This document shows, piece by piece, positions 1-17,367 of a stretch of 17,367 nucleotides of DNA; position 1 is the first letter of the stretch, and the number at the start of each line of letters is the position of its first letter. The stretch lies in IMG/VR virus record IMGVR_UViG_3300013426_000020; one strand, written 5' to 3'. The position numbers and the translations under genes were made by a program. The notes under the pieces are model-generated. The model did not search any database. It saw only the letters and a list, made by a program, of their open reading frames with translations, and had not been told where the DNA came from. This DNA comes from a virus (Duplodnaviria > Heunggongvirae > Uroviricota > Caudoviricetes).

Positions 1-1
1 T

Positions 2-187
2 TATCAGGATGCACTCATTGACAATAAGATCGAGAAAGCGGAACTTATGGCACAGTATAACCTTGACAGAAGAACTTGTCGTATGATAACAGGACAGCTT
101 GTGCTTCCTTCAACTCCTACGGTAACAGGTTATGGAAGTTATTTTCCTTGGACTTCTACATCAAGCACGACCACACCATCCGCATAA
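2..187 (+). CDS. 5'-truncated hypothetical protein, C-terminus of a conserved Bacteroidota-phage coiled-coil family (first gene of a 3-gene module)
   Basis: Frame 2 is open from the window start to TAA at 185-187: YQDALIDNKIEKAELMAQYNLDRRTCRMITGQLVLPSTPTVTGYGSYFPWTSTSSTTTPSA*. It is missing from the supplied ORF track. The YQD.LI...I / RRTCRMI.G..VLP.TPTVTG tail is recognised from memory. Confidence 0.8.
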   Translation, partial: YQDALIDNKIEKAELMAQYNLDRRTCRMITGQLVLPSTPTVTGYGSYFPWTSTSSTTTPSA

Positions 188-212
188 CATAAAATAATCA
201 TGAACGTCAGGT

Positions 213-659
213 ATGAATAATTTCTTTGTAAATCAGGATCCACTGCTTCCACAGTCACCGGTCCAGCAGATAAATCCATTGATGTATCAGCAGATACAGG
301 AACTCGGAATAAAGGATAACATAGGTGAACTTGACAAGACACTCAAATCATTGAGTCAGGCAGTATTGACAAAACTTACATCAAATGCAAAGTTCAATAA
401 ATTGAACAATGATTTTCAGGCGACTGTCCAGCAGGAACTTCTTTCTCTTGTGAGAGGGAGACTGAACACAAACCCGTCAGTGGTGGAAAATATAAAGGAG
501 CAGATGAAAATAATAGATGAAATCAAGAAGAGTGTTGAAACAGAGAAAGAAGAATCATTGAACGAAATGAATGACTATATGAAGAACTATTCACACCTGA
601 CGTTCGATGATTATAAGAAAATGAAGAGCGGGGAACCGTTGGATAGAAAGAAAAAATAA
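213..659 (+). CDS. Hypothetical helical protein (148 aa), second gene of the 3-gene module
   Basis: ATG...TAA. N-terminus MNNFFVNQDPLL with a Q/P-rich segment, coiled-coil-like middle, C-terminal YMKNYSHLTFDDYKKMK. Confidence 0.85.
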   Translation: MNNFFVNQDPLLPQSPVQQINPLMYQQIQELGIKDNIGELDKTLKSLSQAVLTKLTSNAKFNKLNNDFQATVQQELLSLVRGRLNTNPSVVENIKEQMKIIDEIKKSVETEKEESLNEMNDYMKNYSHLTFDDYKKMKSGEPLDRKKK

Positions 660-664
660 TTACT

Positions 665-1024
665 ATGAGAAAGGAAGAACTTCAATATAACATCACCAAG
701 TATGTGTACCAGCTCATAGATGAGATTATGCCAGAAAGAGGAATACTTGGAAAGATAGAGAACAGGACTGCAAAATACTGGGTAGACCAGAACCAGTGGA
801 GGCTGGATGACATGCTCACGGTTTTTACGGACAGAGACGGGTGTATAGATGGTCATCACCTTGCGGAATACTACAAAGACGCATTATTCGAAAACGGTGA
901 ACTCCGCCTGTCTCTTTCGGAACTGACTGGAAACAAATTCAAAGGAATAATCCCGGACAAGATTGTCCTGTTCAAGGAAGATGATCTATACAAACTGGTA
1001 GGCATAGACAAACAACAATTCTAA
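665..1024 (+). CDS. Hypothetical protein (119 aa), third gene of the 3-gene module
   Basis: ATG lies 5 nt after the previous stop. Contains FTDRDGCID and IPDKIVLFKEDDL motifs and is followed by a hairpin terminator. Confidence 0.85.
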   Translation: MRKEELQYNITKYVYQLIDEIMPERGILGKIENRTAKYWVDQNQWRLDDMLTVFTDRDGCIDGHHLAEYYKDALFENGELRLSLSELTGNKFKGIIPDKIVLFKEDDLYKLVGIDKQQF

Positions 1025-1030
1025 CTGAAA

Positions 1031-1054
1031 GAGGAGACCTTCTAAAGTCTCCTC
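1031..1054. terminator. Bidirectional intrinsic terminator
   Basis: GAGGAGAC-cttctaaa-GTCTCCTC, 8-bp stem between convergent stops at 1024 and 1060, with a T-run to the right and an A-run to the left. Confidence 0.75.
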
Positions 1055-1059
1055 CATTT

Positions 1060-16730: not shown

Positions 16731-16755
16731 TTCAATAAAAAATAATTTTCTTATT

Positions 16756-16763
16756 TATTTATG
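16756..16763 (-). promoter_or_regulatory. CATAAATA late-promoter-like box upstream of the 601-aa gene
   Basis: tatttatg on +, 25 nt before ATG 16730, followed by AATAAGAAA and placed immediately after a terminator. Confidence 0.6.
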
Positions 16764-16793
16764 AAAAATGACAGTGAACAATCACTGCCATTT
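16763..16793 (-). terminator. Intrinsic terminator on the minus strand
   Basis: The minus strand reads AAATGGCAGTGA-TTGT-TCACTGTCATTTTT: a stem with one G-U pair followed by a U-tract, overlapping the TGA stop of the Cys-rich ORF. Confidence 0.7.
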
Positions 16794-16994
16794 ATGTTTA
16801 GGACATTTTTCGGTTGACATCTTCGCCTTCTTGTCAACATAACATCCGCATATCTTGCAAGTCCAGTTGTTCTGATCAAGATAAGAACAATATTCACAAT
16901 CAGTGAGTCTGGTGATATACTGAATAAAAGAAACCCTCTTACCAAACAATATATATTTCCATAATGCCTTTATAAATCTGCATATTCTTTTCAT
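16782..16994 (-). CDS. Small Cys-rich metal-binding protein (70 aa; DUF6171-like)
   Basis: Start re-called to ATG 16994. Motif RL..CEYC-x9-CKICGC.V..KAK....CP..KW. Confidence 0.7.
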   Translation of the reverse strand: MKRICRFIKALWKYILFGKRVSFIQYITRLTDCEYCSYLDQNNWTCKICGCYVDKKAKMSTEKCPKHKWQ

Positions 16995-16996
16995 AG

Positions 16997-17206
16997 TCAA
17001 ACCACTCCTTTCAAGTCAATGTCCCATTTTTCTTTCAGGAAATCAAGAACATCATTTTTATTGTCTCCTTTCTCAAACGCATATTGCCTTATTATATTGT
17101 TTTCTCTTATGTTTCCATAATAATGATTGAGAAATGATGCAAAATCACCAGAAATTGTATCATTTTCTTGTATGAGATTATAAATCAAATAGTCCTGCAA
17201 ATTCAT
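16997..17206 (-). CDS. Hypothetical protein (69 aa)
   Basis: ATG...TGA, with the stop 2 nt before the next ATG (coupled). N-terminus MNLQDYLIYNLIQE. Confidence 0.7.
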   Translation of the reverse strand: MNLQDYLIYNLIQENDTISGDFASFLNHYYGNIRENNIIRQYAFEKGDNKNDVLDFLKEKWDIDLKGVV

Positions 17207-17298
17207 TACATCATAATTTTATATTGTGTTGTATCCAAATTGATAAAAATAATAAAATTCATCCATATTTACCATAAAAAATAACAAAAATATTTTTT

Positions 17299-17312
17299 CA
17301 TAAATATTTATA
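17299..17312. promoter_or_regulatory. Overlapping CATAAATA (+, 17299-17306) and TATAAATA (-, 17305-17312) boxes
   Basis: cataaatatttata lies in the divergent gap between the 69-aa gene and the ORF starting at 17312. Confidence 0.45.
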
Positions 17313-17367
17313 TGACAACCATAAAGCTGAAATACAGAGTAAGTGATGAAGACAAGGACTTGTTGTT
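17312..17367 (+). CDS. 3'-truncated ORF (MTTIKLKYRVSDEDKDLL...), possibly the N-terminus of an IS200/IS605 TnpB-like protein
   Basis: Only 18 codons are visible. The M.TIKL.Y...ED..L start resembles phage-borne TnpB-like N-termini recalled from memory. Confidence 0.3.
   Translation, partial: MTTIKLKYRVSDEDKDLL

Follow-up and report, generated by a model that had tools for sequence, protein, structure and literature searches.

A 17,367-nucleotide stretch of viral DNA (IMG/VR record IMGVR_UViG_3300013426_000020, referred to here as the window), which its sequence places in a T4-like jumbo phage of the gut that is akin to the Lak phages, is strongly depleted in the four-base words TTAA, CTAA/TTAG and CTAG, together written YTAR (Y, C or T; R, A or G), and equally in CCAA/TTGG. 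The depletion acts at the DNA level, is limited to one clade of phages, involves three words that co-vary, and arose through loss of sites by several synonymous routes. It probably reflects soft selection against the targets of host restriction-type systems, one of them of undescribed specificity; the host system as the agent is what we infer from these observations.

The window contains 15 TTAA, 5 CTAA, 7 TTAG and 1 CTAG, i.e. 28 YTAR sites in total, exactly as counted by hand in a preliminary description of this DNA, and base composition predicts 464 (the earlier estimate was about 480). Dinucleotide shuffles of the window yielded 289.9 ± 14.4 sites. A maximal-order Markov model predicted 116, corresponding to an observed-to-expected ratio (O/E) of 0.24, and simulations with this model gave 115 ± 10 sites, with 88 as the lowest count in 200 runs. 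After synonymous-codon shuffling the O/E was 0.14 for TTAA, 0.16 for CTAA, 0.13 for TTAG and 0.07 for CTAG; thus neither of the two controls proposed in the preliminary description brought the ratios near 1. Its further claim that the GC-richer first kilobase is affected too was borne out (0 sites versus ~23 expected), and so was the replacement of codons before AAA: in the coding DNA of the phage, T-ending codons are nearly absent before AAx, with isoleucine encoded by ATA 137 times, by ATC 77 times and by ATT only 7 times, and phenylalanine by TTC 113 times versus 12 times by TTT. The statement that other xTAx words are abundant holds insofar as TA is not generally avoided, but GTAC is also depleted (Markov ratio 0.32) and T|AG junctions are avoided whatever base precedes them (AT|AG 10/40, GT|AG 3/14). 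The depletion of CCAA/TTGG (45 sites in the window versus 154 ± 11 expected) and a panel of other avoided words had not been picked up. We conclude that the YTAR depletion is real.

By walking upstream via identical proteins we added 67 kb to the window, which brought the coverage of the phage to ~84 kb. All seven ~10-kb segments of the first 75 kb were depleted, with quasi-independence ratios of 0.11-0.27 for TTAA, 0.12-0.34 for CTAA and 0-0.23 for CTAG, and the Markov O/E of YTAR over these 75 kb was 0.32. The even depletion of TTAA differs from the avoidance of GTAC and CATG, which is uneven among the segments. In the median gene, YTAR sites reach 7% of the number expected from its own composition. 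On the coding strand CTAA, TTAG, CCAA and TTGG are each depleted, TTAG more so than CTAA, and non-coding DNA is depleted as well (TTAA 14 versus ATAA 161, counted on both strands). Since both strands and non-coding DNA are affected, a cause at the level of messenger RNA is unlikely. The single outlier, an AT-rich DUF723 gene ~67 kb upstream (L223:2-403), has 10 YTAR sites in 402 bp, a near-normal density, which suggests that this apparently foreign gene was acquired recently; as it keeps these sites, they are tolerated.

The words that form the avoided unit were analyzed with a conditional model of synonymous codon choice that included the codon, the junction dinucleotide, optionally the junction trinucleotide, and motif terms, and was fitted to 64-71 kb of coding DNA; it is a pseudo-likelihood model, and differences in fit are approximate. 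The per-site odds were 0.16-0.27 for TTAA, 0.16-0.34 for CTAA/TTAG, 0.13-0.39 for CTAG and 0.13-0.21 for CCAA/TTGG. With junction trinucleotides fitted, the odds were 0.27 for YTAR and 0.21 for CCAA/TTGG, and without them 0.16 and 0.17, respectively. A single YTAR term fitted as well as separate word terms (log pseudo-likelihood gain of 186.3 versus 186.8), and equal fits were obtained with YTAR plus CCAA (186.3), with CYAA plus TTAA plus CTAG (185.7) and with one term for all six words (185.2); the genome alone does not choose among these three sets. MseI, which cuts TTAA, and BfaI, which cuts CTAG, are Type II endonucleases whose sites make up two of the depleted words. A stack of these two sites fitted much worse (161.1 versus 186.3 with trinucleotides and 351 versus 448 without) and was rejected; therefore CTAA/TTAG needs a penalty of its own, and CTAA/TTAG and CCAA are covered by neither enzyme.

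The six depleted words comprise CTAA/TTAG together with three (TTAA, CCAA and CTAG) of the four words that a single transition makes from it. Since TCAA, CCAG and CCGG are not depleted, no simple code of the International Union of Pure and Applied Chemistry (IUPAC) spans this set. The classes YYRR, YYAA, YATR and RGCY failed as well, because TCAA, CCAG, CATA (1.13) and AGCC (0.96) are undepleted. No longer motif was found around the words: the flanks were neutral except for CTAAG/CTTAG, which belongs to CTNAG. Across 37 gut loci, TTAA correlated with CTAA (rho 0.69) and with CCAA (0.50), and CTAA with CCAA (0.73), whereas CTAG was uncoupled from all three (rho −0.09 to −0.17); these values come from related phages that are not independent and from estimates with covariates in common, and a correlation of CTAG may be masked, since this word is close to zero in many relatives. 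The co-variation of TTAA, CTAA and CCAA without CTAG speaks against a pure YTAR unit, although it is suggestive rather than proof. Hence the single palindrome YTAR proposed in the preliminary description is probably not the right unit: one term does fit its four words, but CCAA is equally penalized and CTAG does not follow the others across relatives. The avoidance of CTAG has an at least partly separate and older cause; CTAG is often near zero in Bacteroidia chromosome segments, and it alone is purged in several relatives, in crAss001 and in many Bacteroidia chromosomes.

Relatives of the phage were collected with its phrog_29329 protein as a marker; the unpublished genomes G096 and G174 were left out of the analysis. 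The window phage and its four closest relatives (L030, L083, L028 and L024) form one clade with a FastTree support of 1.0, to which the depletion is confined, being absent or mild in aquatic relatives, in Lak-A1, in crAss001 and in the Bacteroidia chromosome segments sampled. Within the clade the ratios for TTAA/CTAA/CCAA form a gradient: 0.21/0.23/0.11 in the window phage, 0.43/0.33/0.11 in L030, 0.44/0.59/0.29 in L083, 0.51/0.34/0.38 in L028 and 0.68/0.35/0.64 in L024. Rumen relatives showed 0.5-1.1/0.4-1.2/0.75-1.1, aquatic ones were at ~1 on the three words, and Lak-A1 was near 1 for TTAA and CTAA. None of 58 Bacteroidia chromosome segments (three of them from named Bacteroidaceae) and crAss001 fell below 0.40 on TTAA, CTAA or CCAA. 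The background in Bacteroidaceae chromosomes (quasi-independence ratios) is ~0.6-0.7 for TTAA and ~0.5-0.66 for CTAA, and in the rumen relative G001 trinucleotide terms fully account for TTAA (1.04) and CTAA (0.90). Generic bias thus covers an approximately two-fold effect, and the remaining ~three-fold is specific to the clade. The preliminary description had named the same depletion in host chromosomes or unrelated phages as the sign of a generic bias; the signal proved clade-specific and unmatched in Bacteroidia chromosomes and unrelated Bacteroidota phages.

Sites of the depleted words turn over rapidly. At 86% nucleotide identity, 1 of 14 TTAA sites was conserved between L030 and the window, versus 52 of 70 for ATAA. 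The lost sites appear as TCAA, TTGA, TAAA, CAAA, TAGG, CTGG or TCGG; the replacements track the available synonymous routes, and many are transversions. Isoleucine codons before ACx are used in a ratio ATA:ATC:ATT of 49:33:27, and the ATA:ATC proportion is unshifted before AAx, which shows that the lost T is not channelled to C. Polymorphisms between strains, which comprise only 108 sites with several in one patch, gave YTAR gains at roughly the rate of the controls (4/3337 versus 0.0006-0.0016), and existing YTAR and CCAA sites were somewhat more often polymorphic.

The phage also avoids other sites. In the same genome, the ratios were 0.11 for CCWGG, 0.05 for CTGCAG, 0.14 for GTGCAC, 0.19 for CTNAG, 0.23 for GTNAC and 0.25 for GGNCC, and further avoided words were ACGT (0.25), CATG (0.34), GATC (0.37), GGCC (0.36) and CCTC (0.41; 0.35-0.41 for CCTC/GAGG); GTAC belongs to this panel as well. 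These are textbook Type II sites, and about a dozen such classical sites are partly avoided by the phage. That non-temperate phages use site avoidance as a strategy has been documented (Rusinov et al. 2018, PMC6286503), and the window phage resembles the lytic phages of that study in that short sites are rarer than composition predicts, with CATG, GATC, CCWGG, CTNAG, GGNCC and CTGCAG partly avoided. It differs in that some words of its strongest clade-specific unit are asymmetric and no single known enzyme matches this unit, whereas the sites avoided there are almost exclusively those of orthodox Type II systems.

The depletion of YTAR and CCAA/TTGG shares features with restriction-site avoidance: it goes beyond what the sub-words explain, affects both strands as well as coding and non-coding DNA, and is generic neither to the chromosomes of the likely host group nor to unrelated phages. 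The avoidance of TTAA, CTAA/TTAG and CCAA/TTGG in this clade, about 4-6-fold and roughly 3-fold past the Bacteroidales background, would result from steady, soft selection on phage DNA against short words read by sequence-specific defences of the host population. The word set could correspond to one relaxed enzyme with CTAA/TTAG as its centre (CTAA and the single transitions TTAA, CCAA and CTAG), to YTAR plus CCAA, or to an MseI-like TTAA, an asymmetric CYAA and a BfaI-like CTAG specificity together. We tentatively propose a single undescribed, relaxed four-base defence of gut Bacteroidales, perhaps shape-reading, that would recognize CTAA/TTAG, TTAA, CCAA and CTAG but not TCAA or CTGA and would have eroded these words in the clade, a possibility we hold with considerable doubt; the nearest alternative to it would combine a strict YTAR cutter with a CCAA system. 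The residual sites (about a fifth) would most likely mean that the system is present in a subset of the host strains, or that phage methylases give partial cover. Methylases are indeed frequent among the relatives, which have 3-8 N6/N4 methylase genes each, often clustered, pointing to heavy restriction pressure. In rumen relatives we observed clusters of N6/N4 methylase genes (L042:5901-17348 in G002, L043, L044 and L045), with seven in 11 kb plus a Dam-like one in G002, and several of these methylases have DLPY instead of the usual DPPY motif.

Several points weigh against selection by host restriction. The 84 kb retain 193 YTAR sites, and this partial depletion is unlike the situation in some relatives, which fully remove GATC or CTAG. 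A long-resident host system can leave self-depletion in the host chromosome (PMC10333322), and no matching self-depletion was present in the 58 Bacteroidia chromosome segments sampled. Reports of avoidance concern orthodox Type II sites almost exclusively (PMC6286503), and CCAA and CYAA are asymmetric. In the literature searched, whose coverage was incomplete and did not include REBASE, no enzyme or methylome specific for YTAR, CYAA or CCAA was found. TCAA and TTGA are mildly enriched (1.2-1.4-fold), as a T-to-C bias would also make them; a purge in the recent past and some degree of bias are both compatible with this enrichment. Finally, the conclusions rest on ~84 kb of the phage genome, and related phages are not independent samples.

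Instead of the host, the phage itself might supply the agent, either a nuclease degrading host DNA at these words, against which the phage would be protected by avoiding them, or a methylase or modifier of its own that imposes a cost on such sites in the phage genome. The evenness of the depletion over all seven segments, its clade specificity and the lack of a host-chromosome counterpart would fit such an enzyme, and lineage-specific methylated motifs can be depleted in a methylase-bearing genome (PMC10333322). Most of the genome lies outside the ~84 kb seen, and within them the phage encodes a restriction module of a MORC-like ATPase, an EcoRI-like nuclease and a D12 methylase (L216:1-2280; L223:8766-12129), ~55 kb upstream of the window, with a Dam-like methylase nearby. 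However, the nuclease (L216:155-865) belongs to the EcoRI family (profile E=5e-6) and retains the GNA-x-[DE]R-x-x-KN segment, which in EcoRI contacts the AATT core; judged from this segment, the module probably reads an AATT core. The D12 methylase may resemble Campylobacter Cj0208. Cj0208 is a RAATTY enzyme (PMC3526280). GAATTC is not depleted (130 versus 104), and TTAA (376/379) and CCAA (196/199) are normal in another phage, whose copy of the module is 62-69% identical; the carriers L219 and L220 of this module are undepleted. In five other relatives the module was not found with this query. The module was thus rejected as the cause, and with it the suggestion of a phage-encoded nuclease in the preliminary description failed on the sole restriction module found, both by mismatched specificity and by undepleted carriers. 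The Dam-like methylase has relatives with 40-51% identity in phages without the signature, and the 193 persisting sites together with the site-rich DUF723 gene are likewise difficult to reconcile with a phage enzyme, which we therefore regard as unlikely. As to other words in the 75 kb, GAATTC (130 versus 51 from base composition) and TCCGGA (134 versus 16) are over-represented; the TCCGGA excess is mostly accounted for by its sub-words (Markov 119).

The words could be eroded without selection if mutation or repair were biased in one direction, for instance through Vsr-like T:G-to-C:G repair or through damage to the central T. TTAA of the relatives is mostly TCAA or TTGA in the window, these two words are enriched as described above, and the strongly depleted clade members have a higher GC content (35-38%) than L024 and L028 (30%). 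Yet T-to-C changes at position 2 would make CCAA from CTAA, and CCAA is equally depleted; there is no shift to ATC before AAx; and CTAA, CCAA and TTGG are swapped largely by transversions (CAAA, CCTA, TAGG, TGGG). Very-short-patch-like repair was accordingly rejected, as a single T-to-C conversion is unsupported. In ~84 kb we found neither an intact C5 methylase nor a Vsr; the only trace is a 137-amino-acid C-terminal fragment of a C5 methylase (L223:3136-3549) with no catalytic motifs in the flanking 3.4 kb. Such a bias is therefore an improbable explanation.

Generic composition, i.e. a host-like codon usage with rare TTA and CTA combined with avoidance of out-of-frame TAG and TAA on either strand and with a universal rarity of CTAG, is largely refuted as the full explanation, and we give it very little credence. 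Among leucine codons TTA does make up only 8% and CTA 0.6%, either strand of YTAR contains a stop codon, T|AG junctions are avoided regardless of the preceding base, and the Bacteroidaceae background and G001 show how far composition can go. Still, with junction trinucleotides fitted, the YTAR and CCAA penalties given above were needed; non-coding DNA is depleted, CCAA has no stop codon, and the signal is missing from relatives whose codon usage is similar, so that composition explains roughly the first two-fold only. Avoidance of insertion targets is the most far-fetched of these explanations: YTAR is the documented target of IS5-type elements (PMC5009759), which the phage might purge, but CCAA/TTGG would be left unexplained, insertion per site is presumably too rare for a 5-fold purge, and the gene calls of the 84 kb include no IS5. 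Avoidance of CRISPR PAM or TnpB target motifs is another conceivable cause.

Restriction-type selection by the host can be compared with described systems. Degenerate 4-bp palindromic cutters exist, such as CviJI (RGCY) and FaiI (YATR); the phage likewise under-uses a degenerate class, RCGY, whereas RGCY and YATR are undepleted as classes. Over the 84 kb, RCGY acts like a further degenerate class of palindromes (ACGT 0.47, ACGC/GCGT 0.50 and GCGC 0.65 versus 1.2-1.3 for RCGR/YCGY). In gut Bacteroidales, the phosphorothioate systems Dnd, Ssp and BREX type 4 recognize four-base targets through DNA shape, with graded neighbour sets such as ACTC, CCTC and TCTC, and modify part of their sites (PMC12914056). 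They offer a precedent for a graded word set outside IUPAC codes, and CCTC/GAGG is avoided in the phage; their published motifs (NCTC, GAAG, GACG, GAGC, CCA, GAAC/GTTC and GATC) do not include TTAA, CTAA or CCAA.

Site avoidance itself is textbook knowledge; what stands out is the word set (TTAA, CTAA/TTAG and CCAA/TTGG, with or without CTAG), for which we found no matching described enzyme. The literature searched, with incomplete coverage, contained no earlier report of this signature, and for YTAR and restriction it returned only IS5 targets and nucleosome motifs. The composition would predict a defence specificity that can be looked for by methylome or phosphorothioate sequencing of gut Bacteroidales, and it provides a compositional fingerprint by which the host of this uncultured clade of jumbo phages may be found. 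Biochemically, a defence that reads DNA shape or cuts very frequently at AT-rich sites would, if true, be of interest; if the set splits into MseI-, BfaI- and CYAA-type enzymes, the novelty would be limited to the CYAA/CCAA specificity.

The host of the phage is likely a member of the Bacteroidales. Jug phages (PMC12880540) and Lak megaphages (PMC6784885) are T4-like gut jumbo phages with predicted Bacteroidaceae hosts. L024, an 81% relative, resembles the Jug phages in its GC content of 30%. Lak-A1 differs in using genetic code 15, where the window phage uses code 11, and in lacking TTAA/CTAA depletion. The marker protein has a 31% match in Lak and is also common to Tenacibaculum, Flavobacterium and Chryseobacterium phages. 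The best bacterial matches of the phage SmpB (54-57%) fall into one low-GC, methylase-rich Bacteroidia genus, that of G127 (L179, L181, L185, L225, L226, L229 and L230), with 6-12 N6/N4 methylase matches per genome. From these protein matches this genus is a possible host; it avoids a similar panel of sites, yet its TTAA/CTAA/CCAA ratios are only mildly low (0.54/0.66/0.78). In G050, a 28/28 match was not accepted as a spacer of clustered regularly interspaced short palindromic repeats, as there is no repeat array around it. Large related phage contigs, L147 (JBGVNW010000068.1, 360 kb) and L146, occur inside Bacilli/Clostridia bins, where they are probably mis-binned, and these bins were not accepted as hosts.

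Table 1 Features of the window
Feature	Position	Strand	Remark
Depletion of YTAR and CCAA/TTGG (28 + 45 sites)	1..17367	.	continues at least 67 kb upstream in the same phage
YTAR-free first kilobase, GC 0.40	1..1020	.	first site at 1021, overlapping the stop codon of the open reading frame 665-1024
Glycosyltransferase/pyruvyltransferase fusion	1060..3552	-	7 YTAR in 2.5 kb
Collagen-repeat, tail-fibre-like protein	5777..7807	-	phage context; 1 YTAR in 2 kb
Conserved jumbo-phage protein of 1264 amino acids, phrog_29329	7854..11648	-	7 YTAR in 3.8 kb
Sole CTAG of the window	11335..11338	.	
Endolysin, PG_binding_1 + Amidase_2	11711..12598	+	phage context
UvsY-like recombination mediator	12779..13234	+	phrog_231, E=8.8e-5; T4-like context

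Assemblies from ENA, Logan and JGI contain the same phage (99-100% identity), the SRR17470xx runs being probably of Amboseli baboon faeces, and its relatives reach 360-410 kb. Besides the transferase fusion, it encodes further cell-envelope-type enzymes, namely two Stealth-like proteins and LicD with a cytidylyltransferase (14167-14892; L204:1932-2879; L152:10290-11778). The LicD gene (L152:10621-11778) has 9 YTAR sites, above the gene median, and an open reading frame of 265 amino acids (L152:6805-7602) contains 12 CCAA/TTGG but no YTAR, opposite to the trend of the genome.

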